A stretch of 64,000 nucleotides of DNA, taken from NCBI GenBank assembly GCA_044377495.1, contig JBILYY010000001.1, positions 24,196-88,195 on the forward strand, given 5' to 3'. The notes beneath the pieces were generated by a model. The model was given only the letters and a program-made list of their open reading frames with translations. It ran no database searches and was not told the DNA's origin. The stretch is from Bacteriovoracaceae bacterium. GTDB lineage: Bacteria; Bdellovibrionota; Bacteriovoracia; Bacteriovoracales; Bacteriovoracaceae. Positions 5,716 to 27,830 of the stretch are shown here, piece after piece. Made by a program: the position numbers and the translations under genes. The number at the start of each line of letters is the position of its first letter. Position 1 is the stretch's first letter.

Positions 5716-6792
5716 TTATCTTAGTTTCAGTGTTGCAAGTGCAAGAATGGCAAAAACCAGACTCACAATCCAGAAGCGAACAATAACCTTGGTTTCTGGC
5801 CAACCTTTTAATTCAAAATGATGATGAATAGGTGCCATTTTAAAAATTCTTTTTCCTCTTGTTTTAAAAGATGCCACTTGTAAAATCACGGACAGTGCTT
5901 CGATGACAAATATCCCACCGATTAGGACAAACAAGATTTCGTTTTTTGTTAAAACGGCAATCGTTCCGAGACATCCACCAAGAGACAGAGACCCAACGTC
6001 TCCCATGAAAATCTCGGCAGGATAAGCGTTATACCACAAAAATCCCACACTTGCCCCAATTATGGCAGCAACTAAAACAAGTAGCTCTCCCACATCTGGG
6101 ACGTAAGGAATGAGTAGATAGTTTGATAATTCAACGTGCCCGGCCAAATAAGAAAGTAAGCCCAGCGTTGCTGCAGAAGTTATAGTAGGTCCAATCGCTA
6201 ACCCATCTAACCCATCTGTTAAGTTTAAGGCATTTGAGGAGCCCACAATTACGAATGCGGCAAATGGAACGTACCACCATCCAAGATCAACCACCGGATC
6301 TTTTAAAAATGGGACGTAAACTTGCGAGTCAGTTATTCCATATTTAATCATTACAAAAGCTGCCATTAAAGCAGTTAAAAACTGCCAGGCCAACTTTTGG
6401 CGAGCACTAACACCTTTTGTATTTTTCTTGAGTACTTTAAGGTAGTCATCAAGACCCCCCAATAGGAAATAAGAAACTGTTACAAAAAGAGTGATTAAAA
6501 AGGGAAATGACACAAAGTTACCGCAAACGGCACAGGCAATGACGGCACTGCCCAAAATAAACACACCGCCAAAAGTAGGGGTTCCCTGCTTTTTCTTGTG
6601 AGATGCCGGTCCCTCGTCACGAATCGTTTGCCCAAACTGCTTTAATTTCATTAATGCTATAAATCGTTTGCCCCAAACAATTGAAACTACCGTGGCAATG
6701 ATAAACGCAAGAAACGACCTGAAAGTAATGTATTTGAATACATTGAACAAATGACTAGATTGACTTAGTGGGTAAAGCCAATAATAAAGCAT
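5716..6792 (-). CDS. mraY: Phospho-N-acetylmuramoyl-pentapeptide transferase
   Basis: KKQGTPTFGG, DDYLK, NALNLTDGLDGL, FMGDVGSL, MAPIHHHFE. Confidence 0.97.
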   Translation of the reverse strand: MLYYWLYPLSQSSHLFNVFKYITFRSFLAFIIATVVSIVWGKRFIALMKLKQFGQTIRDEGPASHKKKQGTPTFGGVFILGSAVIACAVCGNFVSFPFLITLFVTVSYFLLGGLDDYLKVLKKNTKGVSARQKLAWQFLTALMAAFVMIKYGITDSQVYVPFLKDPVVDLGWWYVPFAAFVIVGSSNALNLTDGLDGLAIGPTITSAATLGLLSYLAGHVELSNYLLIPYVPDVGELLVLVAAIIGASVGFLWYNAYPAEIFMGDVGSLSLGGCLGTIAVLTKNEILFVLIGGIFVIEALSVILQVASFKTRGKRIFKMAPIHHHFELKGWPETKVIVRFWIVSLVFAILALATLKLR

Positions 6793-11817: not shown

Positions 11818-12760
11818 CAACCCTCCCTAGTTGAGATTCTCGTTGTAGTATTCGAAGTTTTGCACTTCGTGAACGAGAATTTATAGACAGCTCTTCTTCC
11901 GTAGCTGTGAGTGGCTTCTTAGTTAAAATTGTAACAGGAAAATCTTGTTTCTCCAGTATTTCTTTGAACGTGTGTTTTACAATTCGATCTTCGAGAGAAT
12001 GGAAACTGATAATTGCAAGAACTCCTCCCTCTGATAAATAAGGCAACAGTTTTGGTATAGTACTTTCCAACACTCTTAATTCATCATTTACTGCGATCCT
12101 TAAAGCCTGAAAAGATCGAGTGGCTGGATGAGTTTTCTGATGACGGTCTTTGGCCGGATAAGCATGGAAACATATGTCTTCCAATTCACTCGTTGTTTCA
12201 ATTTTCTTGGTCATGCGGAGTTCACAAATCTTGGCAGCAATTCTCCGGGAAAGCCTCTCCTCACCGTAGGTGAAAAGAAGGTCTGCAATCTCTTTTTCAG
12301 AGAGAGTATTGAGCAAATCGGCAGCAGTGGGTGTGGAATTATCACCATGATTCATGCGCATATCAAGTGGTGCATCAGCACGAAAGCTAAAGCCTCGTTC
12401 CATCTTGTCAAATTGATGGGATGAGACCCCAAGATCCATCAAGATTCCGGCAAATTTTTGCTGCATTTGATTCTGTTCGCACCACTCTGGAAATTCCACA
12501 AAGTTCATCGGAAGAAGTTTTACACTACCAACTTTGCCCCTATGGATAATATTTTCTTCGCCATTTTTTAAAGCATCCGGATCTTGATCTACAGAATAAA
12601 CCGTAGAACCAGCGATATGGTCCGACAGCGCGAAGGTATGTCCACCGGCGCCAAATGTTAGATCGGCAAACGATAACGAGCCTGAAGCTTTAGAACCTAA
12701 TTCTAAAGCTTCAAGACATTCTTTTAACATTACTGAATAGTGCTTAAGATATTCGGTCAT
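11786..12760 (-). CDS. rsmH: 16S rRNA m4C1402 methyltransferase
   Basis: HYSVM, DLTFGAGGH, DLGVSSHQ, RGFSF, PLDMRM, FQALRIAVNDEL, SFHSLEDR, RSRSAKLR. Confidence 0.97.
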   Translation of the reverse strand: MTEYLKHYSVMLKECLEALELGSKASGSLSFADLTFGAGGHTFALSDHIAGSTVYSVDQDPDALKNGEENIIHRGKVGSVKLLPMNFVEFPEWCEQNQMQQKFAGILMDLGVSSHQFDKMERGFSFRADAPLDMRMNHGDNSTPTAADLLNTLSEKEIADLLFTYGEERLSRRIAAKICELRMTKKIETTSELEDICFHAYPAKDRHQKTHPATRSFQALRIAVNDELRVLESTIPKLLPYLSEGGVLAIISFHSLEDRIVKHTFKEILEKQDFPVTILTKKPLTATEEELSINSRSRSAKLRILQRESQLGRVDGTKKKRFKT

Positions 12761-21797: not shown

Positions 21798-22366
21798 TGG
21801 ATAACCTTTCCACGCTTGATCTAGAATTATTTCTAGAGTTAAATTCATGGCATGCTCCATGGCTTAATTCCTTTATGGTTTTTTTCTCAAGTCAGCTCAT
21901 TTGGCTACCGTTGATTGCTATGATTATTTTTATGGCAATAAAACAACTTACCCGACGAGATTTTTTCATATTCGTCCTGTTTTTGTTTTTGGCAATAATA
22001 GCTTCAGACGTAACATCTTCTTATATTTTAAAAAATGTTTTTGAGAGACTGAGACCCTGTAGAGTGCCAGAGATAAAAGACTTTATAAATAATTTTGGAC
22101 AGAAATGTGGAGGACGATTTGGCTTTGTTTCTTCCCATGCAGCCAACTCGCTTTGTATTATTGCGTTTTCTTTTATTTTACTAAAATTCAAATCTAAGAA
22201 ATTTCATTTTCTGTGGATTCTGCCAATCCTTGTAGGCTTTAGCCGCATCTACTTAGGCGTCCATTATCCCGGCGACATTTTAGGAGGATTCATAATTGGA
22301 GCAATGTGGGCTTCAATTTTAGCGGTAATGTTTAAAAGTTACCAATTAAGGAGCAAGACGATTTAG
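21797..22366 (+). CDS. PAP2-family membrane phosphatase
   Basis: KNVFERLRP, GFVSSHAAN, SRIYLGVHYPGD catalytic motifs. Confidence 0.9.
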   Translation: MDNLSTLDLELFLELNSWHAPWLNSFMVFFSSQLIWLPLIAMIIFMAIKQLTRRDFFIFVLFLFLAIIASDVTSSYILKNVFERLRPCRVPEIKDFINNFGQKCGGRFGFVSSHAANSLCIIAFSFILLKFKSKKFHFLWILPILVGFSRIYLGVHYPGDILGGFIIGAMWASILAVMFKSYQLRSKTI

Positions 22367-23011
22367 AGTCCAATCACCTTTATGGTTTTCATAAATGATT
22401 CTGTCATGCATCCTATTTTCTCTGCCTTGCCAAAATTCAAAATAACTTGGAGTAATTAAGTACCCCCCCCAATGTAAGGGTCTCTCCAGCTCAGACTGTC
22501 CCGAATATTTTACTTCTGTGTCGTTGAATAATTTCTCTAATTCTTTTCGCGATGAAACTTTTTCACTTTGAGGTGAGGCAATGGCACCGATTTGATTACC
22601 CCTGGGTCTTTTTTGAAAATATTCATCTGAAAAACTAGACTCTATTTTTCTAAGAGAGCCTTCAATTCTTACCTGACGCTGCAAGGGTAACCACAGAAAA
22701 GTCATTGAGACGTGGCAATTATTAATAACCTCTTTTCCCTTTGAGCTATTGTAATTAGTATAAAAAGCAAAACTTCCCTGATGGATACCCTTTAAAAGGA
22801 CTACTCTTGCACGTGGTTTATTATCTTCTACCGTGGACAATACAAAAGCATTGGGTTCATCACATTTACTGTTAACTGCATCTTTAAACCATTTATCAAA
22901 CTGTATTTCAGGGTTAGGGCTACAAATATTGATATCGAAATCAGCATTTCGATAACTTCCCCTAAGATTTTCTAATGTTTCATTAATATTCATTTTGAGA
23001 CAGTATGTCAT
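22346..23011 (-). CDS. pdxH: Pyridoxamine 5'-phosphate oxidase
   Basis: PRARVVLLK, FYTNYNSSKG, RQVRIEG, YFQKRP, WGGY, EFWQGRENRMHDR. Confidence 0.95.
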   Translation of the reverse strand: MTYCLKMNINETLENLRGSYRNADFDINICSPNPEIQFDKWFKDAVNSKCDEPNAFVLSTVEDNKPRARVVLLKGIHQGSFAFYTNYNSSKGKEVINNCHVSMTFLWLPLQRQVRIEGSLRKIESSFSDEYFQKRPRGNQIGAIASPQSEKVSSRKELEKLFNDTEVKYSGQSELERPLHWGGYLITPSYFEFWQGRENRMHDRIIYENHKGDWTLNRLAP

Positions 23012-23694
23012 TCAGATGCTTCTGTCACCTGCTCGCCGGTTAAAATATATTTTTTTAATTTATCAACAATTACAAAGGCTCGATCATTCGGATCAGTAAC
23101 CCCTAGAAAAAATTTATCAATAGCGTTGGCCGAGTCGTCTAAAATGATATCTTTATAATTTTGTAGGTTTTTCAATTCTTCTAAATCCGTAATTTCTTTT
23201 TCCATCTCCTGAATTAGTCGAACGAGAAATGATTGAATGGTTTTGAACATCAATCTTGAAATTACAATATTTGGGATAACATTTTTATTTTTACCTAAAC
23301 GAAGTATTTGTCCGTCACCAATCCCTACATCATAAGCTGAGGAGACCGCAAATTTACTTAAACCTGCCAGAACCTTCATGCAAAAAACAGTTTTCTGTTT
23401 TGGATCAGAAAACTTATCGATTTCGGCCATAAATTCGTCACTAAAAATTTTAAATCCATCACTAACTCTTAGAGGGATTGCCTTTAATAGTAAAACAGAG
23501 CCCTGGATTGAATCTTTAATATTTATAAAAGATTCTTTTAAGGAAAAGTTTTTATATGTACTTTTAATATTTAAATCTAAGATACCTGAAGCAAAATCTT
23601 TTACAATTCTTGTAAAATCTTCTTTAACGATTAATGCAAATATATTCTGACTTTTATTTTTCAATACATGTTTCATTGAATCAGCAAGGTTCAT
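23008..23694 (-). CDS. Hypothetical 228-aa helical protein
   Basis: Long ORF with AAAGGA RBS; stop overlaps pdxH start (ATGA); no motif recognised. Confidence 0.75.
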   Translation of the reverse strand: MNLADSMKHVLKNKSQNIFALIVKEDFTRIVKDFASGILDLNIKSTYKNFSLKESFINIKDSIQGSVLLLKAIPLRVSDGFKIFSDEFMAEIDKFSDPKQKTVFCMKVLAGLSKFAVSSAYDVGIGDGQILRLGKNKNVIPNIVISRLMFKTIQSFLVRLIQEMEKEITDLEELKNLQNYKDIILDDSANAIDKFFLGVTDPNDRAFVIVDKLKKYILTGEQVTEASE

Positions 23695-23776: not shown

Positions 23777-23881
23777 TTAAATGCCTTCAAGATTTTCTTC
23801 TTTCGCTTTTAATAGAAGACATGCTGATAGAAAAAAGGAAATATTGGGGATAAAATGAATTGCTCCACTTGATCTAATCAT
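23777..23881 (-). CDS. Putative 34-aa small protein, not in ORF track
   Basis: AAGGAATATT-ATG; MIRSSGAIHFIPNISFFLSACLLLKAKEENLEGI*; directly downstream of a sigma-54 promoter. Confidence 0.5.
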   Translation of the reverse strand: MIRSSGAIHFIPNISFFLSACLLLKAKEENLEGI

Positions 23882-23927
23882 AATATTCCTTAAGTTGTTA
23901 TGTTTGCCTTAGCTTTGAGAGTACAAG

Positions 23928-23944
23928 TGCAGAGAAGGTGCCAA
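23928..23944 (-). promoter_or_regulatory. sigma-54 promoter P1
   Basis: TTGGCACCTTCTCTGCA; GG 23942-41, N10, GC 23930-29. Confidence 0.75.
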
Positions 23945-24049
23945 AGTTGGACTATTATATTTCAAGTATTTATTGCCACACGAGGCTTGTATTCGGGTAA
24001 TTATGCCTCTATATTTCGGCAAAAGTACCCTTCAAAGGATTTTAGCCCC

Positions 24050-25453
24050 GTGAAGCCAAAAAATATTCCAACCATAGCCTTGATAGATGATGACCTGGAC
24101 CTTCTCGATCTTCTTGCTAGTTTTTTTAGACAAAGGGGATACAAGGTATTGGCATTTAGTAATGCCGAGGAAGCGCTGATTGAAATTGAAAATAAAAGAA
24201 TTGAGGCAGATGTAGTAATTTCAGATTTAAAACTTCCTGTAATGTCAGGCATGGATTTCATTAAAAGAATAAACAAACAGAACACTCGATTGCCCATTAT
24301 CCTCATGACTGCAGAGGGAAGTGTTGAAACAGCGGTAGAAGCAATTGAATCTGGCGCTTATGACTTTGTGCTTAAACCACTTCATATTCCACAGCTCATT
24401 ATATCAGTTCAACGCGCTCTACATCTGAATGATGTTCAAGCAGAAAATTCAAATCTAAAAGACATGTTTCAAGGCCAAGATTATATGGGTCTTAAAGGTG
24501 TTATTGGAAAAAGCCAAGGGTTTAGAAAAGCAATGGATTTGGCCAAAAGAGTCTCATCTAGTCAGGCAAATATCCTCATAAGTGGTGAAAGTGGTTCAGG
24601 CAAAGAAGTCATTGCTAAGGCAGTTCATGAATTAGGCGACAAAAATGCAGGCCCATTCATTGCTATTAACTGTTCCGCAATTCCCGAGAACCTTCTTGAA
24701 TCTGAATTATTTGGTCATGCGAAGGGAGCATTTACTGGTGCCAATGATAAGAAAATAGGTTTATTTGAAGAGGCGAATAAAGGTACACTTTTTTTAGACG
24801 AAATAGGTGACTTAACACTATCCCTCCAGGCAAAACTTTTAAGAGTTTTACAGGAAAGAAAAGTTAAACGGATCGGAGAGAATCAATACCGAGATATATC
24901 CGCACGCATTATTTGTGCCACCCATAAAGATCTTCGCAAAGAAGTTTTTGAGGGACGTTTCAGAGAAGATCTATATTTTCGACTAAATGTTATTCCTATT
25001 TTTATGCCACCACTTCGCGAAAGAAGAGATGATATTCTTCCCTTAAGTGATTATTTTTTAAAAAAATTCTCCATAATGAATAATATTCAAATCAAGGGAT
25101 TTTCCAGAGAGGCCATTCAGAAATTAGAAGGCCATGTATGGAAGGGGAATGTCAGGGAACTTGAAAATGCAATTGAAAGGGCAGTAGTACTTTCTAATTC
25201 TGATATCCTTCAACCAGATGATTTACCAATTGAGGATATTATAAAAGATGATTTAGTATTAACTAATAATAATATCAAAAAACCAGGTTTGCATTTTGAA
25301 GATGAAAAACCTGTAACTCTTGATCAACTTTCAAAAAAATATATCCAGCATGTTTTTGAAAAAAATGATGGCGCAAAAGAACAAACGGCAAACGATTTGG
25401 GAATTGATCGGAAAACCCTCTACCGAAAATTGAAAGAAATGAACTTGAATTAA
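24050..25453 (+). CDS. NtrC-family sigma-54 activator (REC-AAA+-Fis HTH); GTG 24050 preferred over 23900
   Basis: IDDD, phospho-Asp in VISDL, GESGSGKE, GAFTGA, FLDEIG, GNVRELEN, LGIDRKTLYRKL; AAGGA upstream of GTG. Confidence 0.95.
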   Translation: MKPKNIPTIALIDDDLDLLDLLASFFRQRGYKVLAFSNAEEALIEIENKRIEADVVISDLKLPVMSGMDFIKRINKQNTRLPIILMTAEGSVETAVEAIESGAYDFVLKPLHIPQLIISVQRALHLNDVQAENSNLKDMFQGQDYMGLKGVIGKSQGFRKAMDLAKRVSSSQANILISGESGSGKEVIAKAVHELGDKNAGPFIAINCSAIPENLLESELFGHAKGAFTGANDKKIGLFEEANKGTLFLDEIGDLTLSLQAKLLRVLQERKVKRIGENQYRDISARIICATHKDLRKEVFEGRFREDLYFRLNVIPIFMPPLRERRDDILPLSDYFLKKFSIMNNIQIKGFSREAIQKLEGHVWKGNVRELENAIERAVVLSNSDILQPDDLPIEDIIKDDLVLTNNNIKKPGLHFEDEKPVTLDQLSKKYIQHVFEKNDGAKEQTANDLGIDRKTLYRKLKEMNLN

Positions 25454-25563
25454 TATACACTGTTTTCTAGTGCTCCAAAAAGGACGCCCCTTTAAAACGG
25501 GGTTAATTTTCCCTTTTTTCAGGAAAAGGATTCATAAGGTGTTAATTTTCTTAATATCTTTTT

Positions 25564-25580
25564 TTGGCACCCGTCGTGCT
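25564..25580 (+). promoter_or_regulatory. sigma-54 promoter P2
   Basis: TTGGCACCCGTCGTGCT; GG 25566-67, N10, GC 25578-79. Confidence 0.65.
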
Positions 25581-25606
25581 TATTGAATCAGGTGCGCCAA
25601 CACCGT

Positions 25607-25756
25607 TTGGTCAAAATTGATCAACGCAGATACAGATATTTGAAATTCATCCTCACCTGCATTTGTAGTTTGGCAATCTCTGTATTATTTTCACTCTTCC
25701 TATGTTTTTTCGCTAGAAATGACCACCCTGCTCAAAGCAAGGTGGTCATCTCTTAA
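25607..25756 (+). CDS. Possible 49-aa single-pass membrane protein (TTG start; GTG 25592 also in frame), or an sRNA
   Basis: MVKIDQRRYRYLKFILTCICSLAISVLFSLFLCFFARNDHPAQSKVVIS*; basic N-terminus plus one TM; no ATG and only a weak RBS. Confidence 0.35.
   Translation: MVKIDQRRYRYLKFILTCICSLAISVLFSLFLCFFARNDHPAQSKVVIS
25715..25753. terminator. 18-bp imperfect stem-loop (terminator or processing site)
   Basis: AGAAATGACCACCCTGCT-CAA-AGCAAGGTGGTCATCTCT, two mismatches, no clear U tract. Confidence 0.5.
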
Positions 25757-25768
25757 GGTTATGCTAGA

Positions 25769-26599
25769 TTGCGGATTATGAACTTAATTCCTGAAATCAA
25801 ACCTGGTCAGTCGCTTGAACTTCTCAAAGAGCTTCACATCCTAACAAGGGATGGGAAGATAAATCAGGATAGTCGAAGAAAATTAAAGCAAGTTTATCAT
25901 TTATACCAATTCATAGAGCCACTTTTGAATGAGCTTAAACTTGAGGGAACTGATTTATCCGTGGTGGATCACGGAGCGGGTAAATCTTATCTTGGATTTA
26001 TCATTTATGATTTATTCTTCAAAAAACTCAGTGAGGGGACGATCTACGGTATTGAAACTAGAGACGAACTGGTTAAAAAATCACAAGATCTTGCTAAAAA
26101 GCTTTCATTTCCACGTATGTCTTTTTTAAATCTATCAGTTGAAGACTCCATTTCTTCACCACTTCTTCCAGAAAAAATTGGAATGGTTACCGCCCTCCAT
26201 GCCTGTAACACTGCAACCGATGATGCTATTGATTTTGGTCTTAAAAAGAATGTTAAATACTTTGTTCTTGTTCCTTGCTGCCAGGCAGAAGTCGCTGCCG
26301 AACTGAGGAAGACAAAATCTAAAATGATTGGAAAGAGTTTTTTTACAGAAATGTGGCGACACCCAATTCACACTCGCGAATTTGGGAGCCATATCACAAA
26401 CGTTCTTCGCTGCCTCAAACTAGAAGCTCATGGATACCAAGTAACTGTAACAGAGCTGGTGGGGTGGGAGCACTCTATGAAAAATGAACTCATTGTAGCC
26501 CAGTATAAAGATCTGCCACGTAAACATGCACAAGACAGACTAACGGCTATAATTGAAGAGCTAGGCCTAAACGAATTAACAAGCAGATTTTTGAACTAA
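25769..26599 (+). CDS. Class I SAM-dependent methyltransferase (Methyltrans_32-like)
   Basis: VVDHGAGKSYLGF, ALHACNTATD, LVPCC, ELVGWEHSMKN. Confidence 0.85.
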   Translation: MRIMNLIPEIKPGQSLELLKELHILTRDGKINQDSRRKLKQVYHLYQFIEPLLNELKLEGTDLSVVDHGAGKSYLGFIIYDLFFKKLSEGTIYGIETRDELVKKSQDLAKKLSFPRMSFLNLSVEDSISSPLLPEKIGMVTALHACNTATDDAIDFGLKKNVKYFVLVPCCQAEVAAELRKTKSKMIGKSFFTEMWRHPIHTREFGSHITNVLRCLKLEAHGYQVTVTELVGWEHSMKNELIVAQYKDLPRKHAQDRLTAIIEELGLNELTSRFLN

Positions 26600-26607
26600 T
26601 AAATAAA

Positions 26608-26814
26608 TCACTGTTCATAGTGTCGATACAAAACGACACTGTTTTTATTAATCCGATAATCCGAATCTCTGTCGTAGCAATCCATTTTGCCTTTCACCAT
26701 TTTACATACATGCTCACCAGCCTTAATTCGTTGATCAAATCCAGGCTTCTTAATTATAAGGCCAAGAGTAACGAGAGCACAAAATGTAACAATATAGTGC
26801 ATCTGAACATTCAT
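26608..26814 (-). CDS. Hypothetical small membrane-anchored or secreted protein with C-x8-C motif
   Basis: Hydrophobic N-terminus then VCKMVKGKMDC; 18 nt downstream of the DUF1328 gene on the same strand. Confidence 0.5.
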   Translation of the reverse strand: MNVQMHYIVTFCALVTLGLIIKKPGFDQRIKAGEHVCKMVKGKMDCYDRDSDYRINKNSVVLYRHYEQ

Positions 26815-26832
26815 AGAGTTCCTGAAGTTACT

Positions 26833-27015
26833 TTAATGTTTATTAATCATTTTTCTTCCAGATACCATACTGGCTATAAAGCTAATTACGGCCAAGATTA
26901 AGAAGACAAACAATAGTGTTTTGCCAATATCAAGGGATAGGCCCCCAACACCATTGGCCCCTAATAAAATTGCAATCAATCCTAATACAAAAAATGCAAT
27001 TGCTGCTCTTAACAT
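26833..27015 (-). CDS. DUF1328 (UPF0391/YtjA-like) small membrane protein
   Basis: MLRAAIAFFVLGLIAILLG..G..G....IGKTLLFVFLILAVIS family pattern; AAGGAG RBS. Confidence 0.88.
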   Translation of the reverse strand: MLRAAIAFFVLGLIAILLGANGVGGLSLDIGKTLLFVFLILAVISFIASMVSGRKMINKH

Positions 27016-27059
27016 GATCTTTCTCCTTGTTTAGCAAAGACAAACTTTCAAAATCATAA

Positions 27060-27076
27060 GGCATTTATGGTGCCAC
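27060..27076 (-). promoter_or_regulatory. sigma-54 promoter P3
   Basis: GTGGCACCATAAATGCC; GG 27074-73, N10, GC 27062-61. Confidence 0.72.
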
Positions 27077-27165
27077 ATAAAAAACAACAAAAATTCATAA
27101 CTTAGAATTTAGTTTATGCCAGTAATGGGGCATTCCTCCGCTTTCTTTTCATTTTATGTCTCATC

Positions 27166-27390
27166 TTATTTAGACTTACTCAGACTTTTTCTACTTATTT
27201 TCGTCTCCACGAGACCTCTCAGTAAGTCATAACCACGCGCAAGATCCTTTCCTAATTTTAGAACATCTTTTCGAATAATTTTATACTGACCATTAAGTGC
27301 CACAGAATTGCCATTTCTTTGGCTCGATAGAATTCCGTTTTTCATAATCTTTGTTTTAGCTTTTTTACTGATTAAATTTGTTGCATTCAT
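27166..27390 (-). CDS. Hypothetical 74-aa Lys/Arg-rich protein (ATG 27390 preferred over 27477)
   Basis: AAGGAG RBS before ATG; MNATNLISKKAKTK...IIRKDVLKLGKDLARGYDLLRGLVE... Confidence 0.65.
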   Translation of the reverse strand: MNATNLISKKAKTKIMKNGILSSQRNGNSVALNGQYKIIRKDVLKLGKDLARGYDLLRGLVETKISRKSLSKSK

Positions 27391-27426
27391 TTCAGAACTC
27401 CTTTTTTTTCGTCCGTTAGAGTTTCG

Positions 27427-27443
27427 TGCAAACTTCAGACCAA
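27427..27443 (-). promoter_or_regulatory. sigma-54 promoter P4
   Basis: TTGGTCTGAAGTTTGCA; GG 27441-40, N10, GC 27429-28. Confidence 0.62.
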
Positions 27444-27470
27444 GAAGCAGACTTAATCTGCAAAAGAATA

Positions 27471-27487
27471 ACGGCATCCTTTATGCA
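27471..27487 (+). promoter_or_regulatory. sigma-54 promoter P5
   Basis: ACGGCATCCTTTATGCA; GG 27473-74, N10, GC 27485-86. Confidence 0.68.
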
Positions 27488-27527
27488 AATTATTTATTGC
27501 TATCTAAATAACGCTAAGGGGGATTTC

Positions 27528-27830
27528 ATGCTTAACAATGAACAATTCCAAGGAAAATGGACGGAAATTAAATCTGGTTTAAAAAATCTTTGGGGTGAAA
27601 TTACTGATGATGAAATTGAGTCGGTTAAAGATAATCTTCAATCTATTGATCGAATTGTGCAAAAAAAATACGGGGAAAGAAAAGAGTCCATTTTTAAAAA
27701 ACTGGAGGCCCTCATGGAAAGTTTTGAAAATGAAACGGATAAAAGCCTTAAATTTAATGATGGAGAAAGTTCTTATAGAAGAAGTCCCTTAATTCCTAGG
27801 GACGAGAACGGTAACCCAGCTAGTATCTAA
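27528..27830 (+). CDS. CsbD/YjbJ-family stress protein with C-terminal extension (ATG 27528 preferred over 27426)
   Basis: QFQGKWTEIKSGLKNLWGEITDDEI...VQKKYG matches the YjbJ pattern; AAGGGGG RBS. Confidence 0.88.
   Translation: MLNNEQFQGKWTEIKSGLKNLWGEITDDEIESVKDNLQSIDRIVQKKYGERKESIFKKLEALMESFENETDKSLKFNDGESSYRRSPLIPRDENGNPASI

Follow-up and report, generated by a model that had tools for sequence, protein, structure and literature searches.

The genes for the small RNAs (sRNAs) CrcZ and NrsZ lie beside those for the NtrC-family regulators CbrB and NtrC. Two further reference points are the LuxO system (described in PMC4878744) and GlmY, whose sigma-54 dependence is cited in PMC3162934. On the protein side, YjbJ (a CsbD protein) and YtjA (a DUF1328 protein) are among the small proteins under tight sigma-S control in Salmonella (PMC5437024), which bears out the statement of an earlier note on the DNA discussed here that both belong to stress-regulon families. 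This DNA, the window, is a stretch of 64,000 nucleotides (contig C100:24196-88195) from a 3.56-Mb metagenome-assembled genome (MAG) of a Bacteriovoracaceae bacterium (39% G+C, 300 contigs, 91.6% complete); all coordinates given without a contig name are positions in it. We focus on the locus at 23777-27830, where five putative sigma-54 promoters (P1 to P5) surround the gene of an NtrC-type activator and precede a candidate sRNA and genes for small proteins, DUF1328 and CsbD-like proteins among them. Very little has, to our knowledge, been learned so far about stress sensing in Bdellovibrio-like predators or about their passage into and out of a non-growing phase.

Our conclusion is that the locus probably represents a conserved sigma-54 regulon island that serves a stress or quiescence response and has an sRNA arm; we put the probability of this reading at about 0.7. 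The module is read as a sigma-54-wired stress or quiescence response because protein families typical of RpoS and SigB regulons are found in a genome in which neither RpoS nor SigB was detected. Judging from the relatives of two of its genes, the host is a freshwater Bdellovibrio-like predator of the Peredibacter group. The nearest public relatives of the activator gene come from MAGs labelled Bacteriovorax stolpii, Bacteriovoracaceae or Halobacteriovoraceae and from the complete genome of Peredibacter sp. HCB2-198, and homologs of the 74-amino-acid (aa) protein described below are present in Peredibacter starrii too.

The five GG-N10-GC motifs listed in the earlier note were all recovered in a check of the sequence, at the places given there, in intergenic DNA and in the correct orientation. 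P1 (23928-23943, minus strand; TGGCACCTTCTCTGCA; 16.2 bits) diverges from the activator gene, and P2 (25565-25580, plus strand; TGGCACCCGTCGTGCT; 15.3 bits) lies upstream of the candidate sRNA. P3 (27060-27075, minus strand; TGGCACCATAAATGCC; 12.8 bits) would serve the DUF1328 gene and its downstream partner orf68. P4 (27427-27442, minus strand; TGGTCTGAAGTTTGCA; 11.9 bits), a TGGTAY variant typical of this position, precedes the gene of the 74-aa protein, and P5 (27472-27487, plus strand; CGGCATCCTTTATGCA; 10.3 bits) stands back to back with it, upstream of the CsbD gene. The distance from the -12 C to the ATG is 48 nt for orf34, 46 nt for DUF1328, 38 nt for the 74-aa protein and 42 nt for CsbD, with a Shine-Dalgarno (SD) sequence before each, again as the note had it. 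The scores come from an approximate position weight matrix (PWM) for sigma-54 that was built from the published consensus, and the gene calls are crude ones, based on open reading frames (ORFs) with starts refined by ribosome-binding sites (RBS), which reproduced the expected starts at this locus.

Measured against the consensus TGGCAC-N5-TTGCW, P1 and P2 have one mismatch each, P3 has two, and P4 and P5 have three, with GG and GC intact in all of them. The bare GG-N10-GC pattern is weak proof by itself because it is common in the window (242 matches vs 194 expected). The genome-wide PWM scan that the earlier note had suggested gave a divided answer. Intergenic DNA makes up 13% of the genome and holds 44% of the matches of at least 14 bits and 63% of those of at least 16 bits, the range of P1 and P2, whereas matches of 10-14 bits, the range of P3 to P5, show no intergenic enrichment. 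P1 and P2 are strong on score alone; P3, P4 and P5 are not. The locus is nonetheless the densest cluster of intergenic matches of at least 10 bits in the genome (five in 3.7 kb, with four in the runner-up), and every intergenic match of at least 11.5 bits in the 64 kb falls within it. A scan for consensus promoters turned up no sigma-70-type candidate in the five promoter regions. One further site, at 23724-39 on the minus strand (TGGCACAAATCGTCCT) upstream of a gene for a 228-aa protein, was not counted as a promoter, its -12 GC being missing.

The decisive evidence, as we read the sequences, is conservation, which the earlier note had proposed to examine at orthologous loci. We compared two sets: 20 orthologous loci from the same genus (activator identity 63-96%) and 54 further species-level loci, in which the 200 nt upstream of each gene were searched for the highest-scoring site on its strand. 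The 20 genus loci have sigma-54-like sites at the same five positions, usually stronger ones (13-18 bits); the letters that separate GG from GC change freely from locus to locus. The site at the P1 position was found in 11 of these 20 loci, there upstream of a second DUF1328 paralog; P3 reaches 13-16 bits in relatives, and P4 reaches 14-18 bits in most of them. In the 54-locus set, a site of at least 12 bits is present upstream of CsbD in 89% of cases, at the P2/methyltransferase position in 75%, upstream of DUF1328 in 70% and upstream of the basic small protein in 68%, compared with 0-6% for the control genes (pdxH, 0/40; the SET gene, 0/13; orf68, 0/16; the activator gene itself, 1/54; the 228-aa gene, 2/35). 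The spacing between the -12 element and the ATG is also narrowly kept, at 25-44 nt for CsbD and 42-51 nt for DUF1328. Judged by these alignments, the pattern is the one expected of functional promoters rather than of chance motifs, and the five sites behave as selected sigma-54 promoters. P3 to P5 are thus raised above chance by the density of the cluster, by positional conservation relative to the controls and by the presence of rpoN. The activator gene stays syntenic with all four target units even in species whose activator is only about 61-66% identical.

The activator gene (24050-25453, plus strand) encodes an NtrC-type protein with a REC domain, an AAA+ domain carrying GAFTGA and an HTH_8 domain, which confirms the claim that the sites flank an intact activator of this type. 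Its Pfam matches are Sigma54_activat (237 bits), Response_reg (94 bits) and HTH_8 (38 bits), together with AAA_lid_14. The key residues can be read from the translation: an acidic pocket (LIDDD), the phospho-acceptor Asp in VVISDLKLP, the Thr in LMTAEGS and the Lys in FVLKP of the receiver, and the Walker A sequence GESGSGKE and GAFTGA. The GTG start at 24050 aligns with the ATG starts of relatives. Upstream of it stands a sigma-70-type promoter (TTGTAT-N17-TATATT, 23987-24015, plus strand) with a conserved leader behind it. All genus loci show strong conservation of this block, which reads TTGTCA-N17-TATATT in most, while a strict regular expression matched in 23/53 loci. A consensus scan places a terminator-like hairpin past the gene (25486-25503, plus strand). 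From its surroundings, the activator is an orphan regulator, so called because no kinase gene lies nearby.

The genome has an intact rpoN (a 480-aa ORF with Sigma54_DBD at 211 bits and the RpoN box ARRTVAKYR). Bdellovibrio-like predators have a small set of sigma factors without RpoS. Five sigma-70-family genes were found here (RpoD, RpoH, two FliA-like and one extracytoplasmic-function factor), with neither RpoS nor SigB among them in the 91.6%-complete genome, an inventory that agrees with the repertoire described for Bdellovibrio (PMC3464611). The Sigma54_activat model yields about 6-9 genuine bacterial enhancer-binding proteins (bEBPs), the present activator included. A higher figure of about 31, from a full-length protein search, was withdrawn, as matches to the receiver domain had been counted in it.

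P2 has no start codon nearby. Relatives share a structured element between P2 and the downstream methyltransferase gene. It consists of a closing helix (GCUAAC/GUUAGC in relatives, GCCAAC/UUGGC here), an inner hairpin with a GAAU or AAAU loop, an invariant unpaired CCUGCA, a variable spacer and a G+C-rich terminator hairpin. In the window, the candidate sRNA extends over 25591-25755 on the plus strand (about 160 nt, with a core at 25594-25676) and has the closing helix GCCAAC/TTGGC in the DNA, the hairpin at 25609-25622, CCUGCA at 25656-25661 and the terminator hairpin at 25721-25747. RNAalifold recovered two of these parts, the inner hairpin and the terminator hairpin, and 11 of 14 pairs carry compensatory changes; the terminator helix covaries among relatives. 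In the closing helix and hairpin, 95% of the alignment cells pair, compared with 7-37% for slid partners, and double changes occur in 8 of 11 pairs. Extending the alignment to 25 sequences (14 of them outside the seed) gave 9 of 11 covarying pairs and 95% paired cells vs 12-40% slid, in an alignment that was fitted to the model and so leans towards the structure. The fold has a z-score of -3.0.

A covariance model built from 11 sequences finds exactly one copy in this genome. Of 41 genomes of the genus, 27 have it, likewise once, and none was found in 80 genomes of other genera of the family searched with stricter filters. The copy always lies directly downstream of the activator gene and before the methyltransferase gene. 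No Rfam family (CrcZ, NrsZ, Qrr and GlmY/GlmZ included) matches 25591-25760 on the plus strand even at E values up to 10, and a scan of the whole locus returned sub-threshold chance matches only. We had also considered that a 57-aa ORF under P2 (orf57) might encode a small membrane protein. This candidate was dropped, since the ORF is not conserved and the RNA helices covary: orf57 occurs only in the closest relative, at 54% identity vs 95-96% for the flanking proteins. The Methyltransf_32 gene itself (25762-26599, plus strand; ATG at 25778; Pfam 159 bits) has an extended -10 element (TGCTAGATT) at 25762-25770, 7 nt before the ATG. Because this element is conserved (in 24 of 37 loci the last letter of TGnTAnnnT lies 6-8 nt ahead of the ATG) and an SD sequence is absent, the methyltransferase mRNA is probably leaderless and independently transcribed. 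Covariation, the terminator, the unconserved ORF and the methyltransferase's own promoter together make it most likely that P2 drives a single-copy structured sRNA of about 160 nt rather than a methyltransferase mRNA or a protein. Such an sRNA, encoded beside its presumed activator, would be previously undescribed.

The protein products are mostly small. The DUF1328 (YtjA-like) membrane protein (26833-27015, minus strand) scores 32.4 bits to its Pfam model, above the cut-off of 27, and 34.3 bits (PF07043) in the genome search, where it is the sole bona fide copy. Its downstream partner orf68 (26608-26814, minus strand) encodes a small membrane-anchored, Cys-containing protein that is conserved in 16 loci (53-70 aa), lacks a sigma-54 site of its own in all 16 and has no Pfam or NCBIfam match. 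The 34-aa ORF behind P1 (orf34, 23777-23881, minus strand), which the earlier note had listed simply as an ORF with an RBS-supported ATG, is a decayed second DUF1328 paralog. It has the promoter, leader and RBS context of the intact paralog (MLRAAI...) that stands behind P1 in most relatives and keeps only its first residues; a tblastn search found the remnant only in the closest relative besides this genome. Downstream, P1 may read on into the 228-aa gene and pdxH. The former (23008-23694) has no family match, overlaps pdxH (22346-23011) by 4 nt (ATGA) and is syntenic with the activator in most relatives.

The 74-aa basic protein (27166-27390, minus strand) has the motif QYxIIRxDLxKLRxDLxKGYDMAK and belongs to a lineage-specific family: its 137 homologs (66-100 aa) are all annotated as "hypothetical" and are confined to Peredibacter and Bacteriovoracaceae, and it has no Pfam, NCBIfam or PDB-profile match. 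On the other side of the divergent promoter pair, the CsbD/YjbJ-like protein (27528-27830, plus strand), the only one in the genome, carries a C-terminal extension and matches NCBIfam PRK10428 at 28 bits; positional orthologs reach 48.9, 45.3 and 41.6 bits to Pfam CsbD, above its cut-off.

P4 and P5 diverge, with 4-11 nt between their 5' ends in 16 of 22 loci and 29 nt here. Because the promoters nearly abut, an enhancer for them, if there is any, must by this layout sit within or beyond the flanking genes. A palindrome between the two (GCAGA-N5-TCTGC) was considered as an NtrC-like enhancer and rejected: it is absent even in the closest relative, and in most genomes the spacer is down to 4-11 nt. 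We found nothing relevant in the literature on back-to-back pairs of sigma-54 promoters. At P3, an upstream element (GGAGGAATGCCCC, 27127-27139, minus strand) starts at -64 from the promoter and follows the genus consensus GGAA-N4-5-RCCCC. This consensus, for which chance predicts 3%, occurs in 14 of 17 DUF1328 promoters (at -53 to -66), in 9 of 27 sRNA promoters at about -87 and, in one CsbD subclade, at -88. Its recurrent positions are -54, -65 and -87; the steps of about 11 nt suggest helical phasing, and the element is a candidate site for the activator or a co-factor. Elsewhere, TGCCCC is found at -56/-57 of three sigma-54 sites in this genome and TTGCCCC upstream of BON-array promoters in relatives. 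In most relatives the P3 site itself forms a perfect palindrome (TGGCAY-N5-RTGCCA) that reaches 13-16 bits whichever strand is read (e.g., 5766-5782 of one orthologous locus). By its symmetry, it could be bidirectional, in which case the plus-strand transcript would run antisense to the gene of the 74-aa protein, or it might serve as an operator as well.

The genome has 65 intergenic sites of at least 13 bits, many of them upstream of small or exported proteins. Two precede BON/OsmY-like genes (C171:10281-10753 and C222:5471-6524), and across the genus a sigma-54 site stands before 14 of 46 BON genes, mostly the first of a tandem array, compared with 1 of 46 on the opposite strand. These BON/OsmY-like genes, which carry a GKGPKG(W/Y) motif, form a large paralog family of up to about 11 per genome; in relatives they are often arranged in tandem (e.g., G011:C1:2573945-2576311), and the leading gene of such an array as a rule carries a sigma-54 site. 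Elsewhere in the family, in other genera, a site of at least 12 bits lies upstream of 7 of 30 CsbD genes vs 0-1 of 30 controls. A 53%-identical activator homolog from another family of the phylum stands next to a divergent CsbD-like gene, whose ATG is preceded at 28 nt by a -24/-12 motif.

Three further observations concern sites outside the locus. In another family of the phylum (G032:C27 1668-1830), two strong, divergent sigma-54 sites (15.8 and 17.3 bits, 131 nt apart) lie ahead of an activator ortholog of about 59% identity and drive a 66-aa hydrophilic protein and a 163-aa protein. On contig C76 of the present genome (8473-10744), a second cluster of strong sites, TGGCACGCTTCATGCT and two copies of TGGCACGATTCCTGCT (18.2 bits), adjoins the second FliA-like sigma gene; the duplicated sites precede near-identical hydrophobic peptides of 32-34 aa (MELMIAAIGLVSMMVVSLAFQRASYKK...) and signal-peptide proteins. 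Contig C14 holds a 17.2-bit site (12736-12751) with GGAATTATGCCCC at -63, which is also where the DUF1328 promoter has this element. This site lies upstream of a 69-aa hydrophilic protein without a known family and, from the shared element, may belong to the same regulon.

Taken together, the locus could work as follows. An orphan NtrC-type regulator would be made constitutively from its own sigma-70 promoter, with five -24/-12 promoters around it. An unlinked kinase presumably phosphorylates the receiver Asp and renders the regulator active, upon which it would remodel the closed complexes of sigma-54 holoenzyme at the five promoters. The predicted output consists of the DUF1328/YtjA membrane protein with its Cys-containing partner (and a second DUF1328 paralog in most relatives), the lineage-specific basic protein of 66-100 aa, the CsbD/YjbJ-like protein and the structured sRNA of about 160 nt from directly downstream of the activator gene. 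We infer from the sequences the dependence on sigma-54, the pairing of activator and promoters, the signal and the sRNA's targets; the trigger (starvation, osmotic or envelope stress, or attack phase), the phosphorylation input and the assumption of a single activator are conjectural in the same way. The idea, put forward in the earlier note, that a stress gene set is wired here to RpoN and a phosphorylated activator has thus held up in part: the selected sites, the presence of rpoN, a sigma-factor inventory in which no RpoS or SigB was found and the sites before BON genes speak for it, and the lack of a linked kinase speaks against it.

This lack is one of several points that weigh against our reading. 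The nearest HATPase_c genes lie some 35-40 kb off on the contig, so that no cognate kinase is linked, and the 5-8 other bEBPs of the genome could serve some of the five promoters. No palindromic enhancer common to all five was found; the GGAA-N4-5-RCCCC element is non-palindromic, absent from P4 and P5 in most genomes and degenerate at P2 here. P3 to P5 reach only 10-13 bits in this genome, within the score range that lacks genome-wide enrichment. The CsbD-like protein of the window scores 19.1 bits to Pfam CsbD (PF05532), below the gathering threshold of 40 bits. As for the sRNA, the U-tract of its terminator is poor in this genome, translation-initiation regions show no excess of TGCAGG (25 observed vs 38 expected), and a ranking by duplex energy gave no convincing target, the top match lying inside a coding region. 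Hfq (PF17209) was not detected in the 91.6%-complete assembly, and an RpoS-like gene may likewise be missing from an assembly of this kind.

Several other explanations compete with a single sigma-54 stress regulon. The one we take most seriously, although the balance tips against it, changes the physiology rather than the wiring: the module would be an envelope or osmotic-stress response akin to the sigma-54/PspF phage shock response and not a switch for starvation, dormancy or attack phase. Small proteins in or at the membrane predominate among its products (orf68, the BON-domain arrays and, in relatives, two DUF1328 copies), and Psp is a known precedent for such a set under sigma-54. Yet no PspA, PspB or PspC homolog is present at the locus, the activator has the receiver domain that PspF lacks, and solubility is predicted for CsbD and for the basic 74-aa protein. 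It is unlikely, though well worth keeping in mind, that the promoters are real and that some or all of them are served by other activators, with the adjacent regulator controlling a subset, for example the divergent DUF1328 paralog together with the sRNA; the clustering would then reflect shared physiology instead of one regulon. The number of bEBPs and the want of a common enhancer motif fit this view, as do the sigma-54 sites with TGCCCC at -56 on other contigs and the BON arrays with sites far from the activator. Cognate bEBPs are, however, usually encoded beside their targets, the synteny of the activator with all four target units persists at about 61-66% identity, and the 53%-identical homolog in another family is again found beside a CsbD-like gene with a -24/-12 motif.

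For the transcript from P2, the alternative is that it serves the Methyltransf_32 gene as a cis-regulatory leader of the attenuator or riboswitch kind, whose hairpin would be a conditional terminator. A closing helix and an unpaired CCUGCA followed by a terminator right before a gene do make up the classical riboswitch layout; we still hold this to be distinctly improbable, as the extended -10 and the missing SD point to a separate leaderless mRNA, inspection by eye shows no complementarity of the antiterminator type between the aptamer-like core and the terminator, and the methyltransferase gene is retained beside shorter RNA variants and in one genome without the RNA. Least credible by a wide margin is the view that the motifs arose by chance or are sites of another factor (e.g., a dimeric regulator of TGGCA-N7-TGCCA), with ordinary sigma-70 transcription of the genes. 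GG-N10-GC is frequent, P3 to P5 are weak here, and P3 is an operator-like perfect palindrome in most relatives. P1, P2, P4 and P5, on the other hand, are non-palindromic; the asymmetric TGGCAY...TTGCW, its orientation and its distance to the start are fixed in dozens of species in spite of variable spacers; the control genes lack such sites, and no sigma-70-type promoter was flagged in the five regions. The reading as a conserved sigma-54 stress or quiescence island with an sRNA arm is the one we retain.

A bolder extension of it, which we regard as speculative and rather doubtful, is that in Peredibacter-like Bacteriovoracaceae sigma-54 and the orphan regulator have replaced RpoS/SigB as the master of a general-stress or quiescence programme (CsbD, DUF1328, BON/OsmY arrays, lineage-specific small proteins and a new trans-acting sRNA), with core promoters only 4-11 bp apart. 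If this were true, two holoenzymes would have to use about 40 bp jointly or in competition, with activation coming from sites within the coding sequence on either side; we found no description of such an arrangement for sigma-54. In either case, the P4/P5 pair could be a natural test case of how closed complexes and activators fit together without room for an upstream enhancer. The island would offer handles on the control of stress and non-growth in predators, namely an activator, five promoters, a new sRNA and a few small proteins, as well as a clean example of regulon rewiring in which the same effector families have come to stand behind a mechanistically different, enhancer-dependent sigma factor. 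The same locus is carried by Peredibacter starrii and by Peredibacter sp. HCB2-198, in the latter at about 1,085,659-1,094,050 of NZ_CP174607, which makes these organisms usable for experiments.

Among the known systems, the regulons of RpoS (Escherichia coli, Salmonella), SigB (Bacillus) and EcfG (Alphaproteobacteria), with their yjbJ/csbD, ytjA and osmY genes, share the families CsbD, DUF1328 and, elsewhere in this genome, BON with the present module. They differ from it in their promoters, which here are of the -24/-12 type and would need an ATP-dependent activator, in a genome where no RpoS or SigB gene was found. Control would accordingly be all-or-none through an enhancer-binding protein, unlike the competition among sigma factors in the RpoS and SigB systems. 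The module may thus work like an RpoS, SigB or EcfG regulon without being one. In our literature search, no paper tied sigma-54 to CsbD or DUF1328 promoters in any lineage, and no study of an RpoN regulon in Bdellovibrio-like organisms was found. Heavy reliance on sigma-54 would match the "Deltaproteobacteria" (Myxococcus, Geobacter, Desulfovibrio), for which a greater role of this factor is a reported trait (PMC3526173), although these average about 33 bEBPs (PMC3162934) and the present genome has only about 6-9.

The phage shock system resembles the locus in that several small stress proteins at the membrane are under sigma-54 and a bEBP, whose gene is flanked by their promoters or diverges from them. 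PspF, however, has no phospho-receiver and is held by PspA, whereas the activator described here has a receiver, lacks Psp proteins around it and is surrounded by other effector families. The arrangement of the sRNA recalls CbrB-CrcZ and NtrC-NrsZ of Pseudomonas, LuxO-Qrr of Vibrio and GlrR-GlmY of Enterobacteria, where the gene of an NtrC-family protein likewise lies beside a sigma-54-driven small RNA that ends in a terminator. Unlike CrcZ and Qrr, the conserved unpaired motif is CCUGCA, neither CA-rich (as in CrcZ) nor a Qrr seed, and the candidate has no Rfam match, is single-copy, has been found only in this genus and occurs in a genome in which no Hfq was detected. A bEBP-centred sigma-54 regulon and a bEBP-adjacent sigma-54 sRNA are thus both of known kinds; what appears to be new here is the sRNA family, the lineage-specific family of small proteins and the unusually tight pair of divergent promoters.

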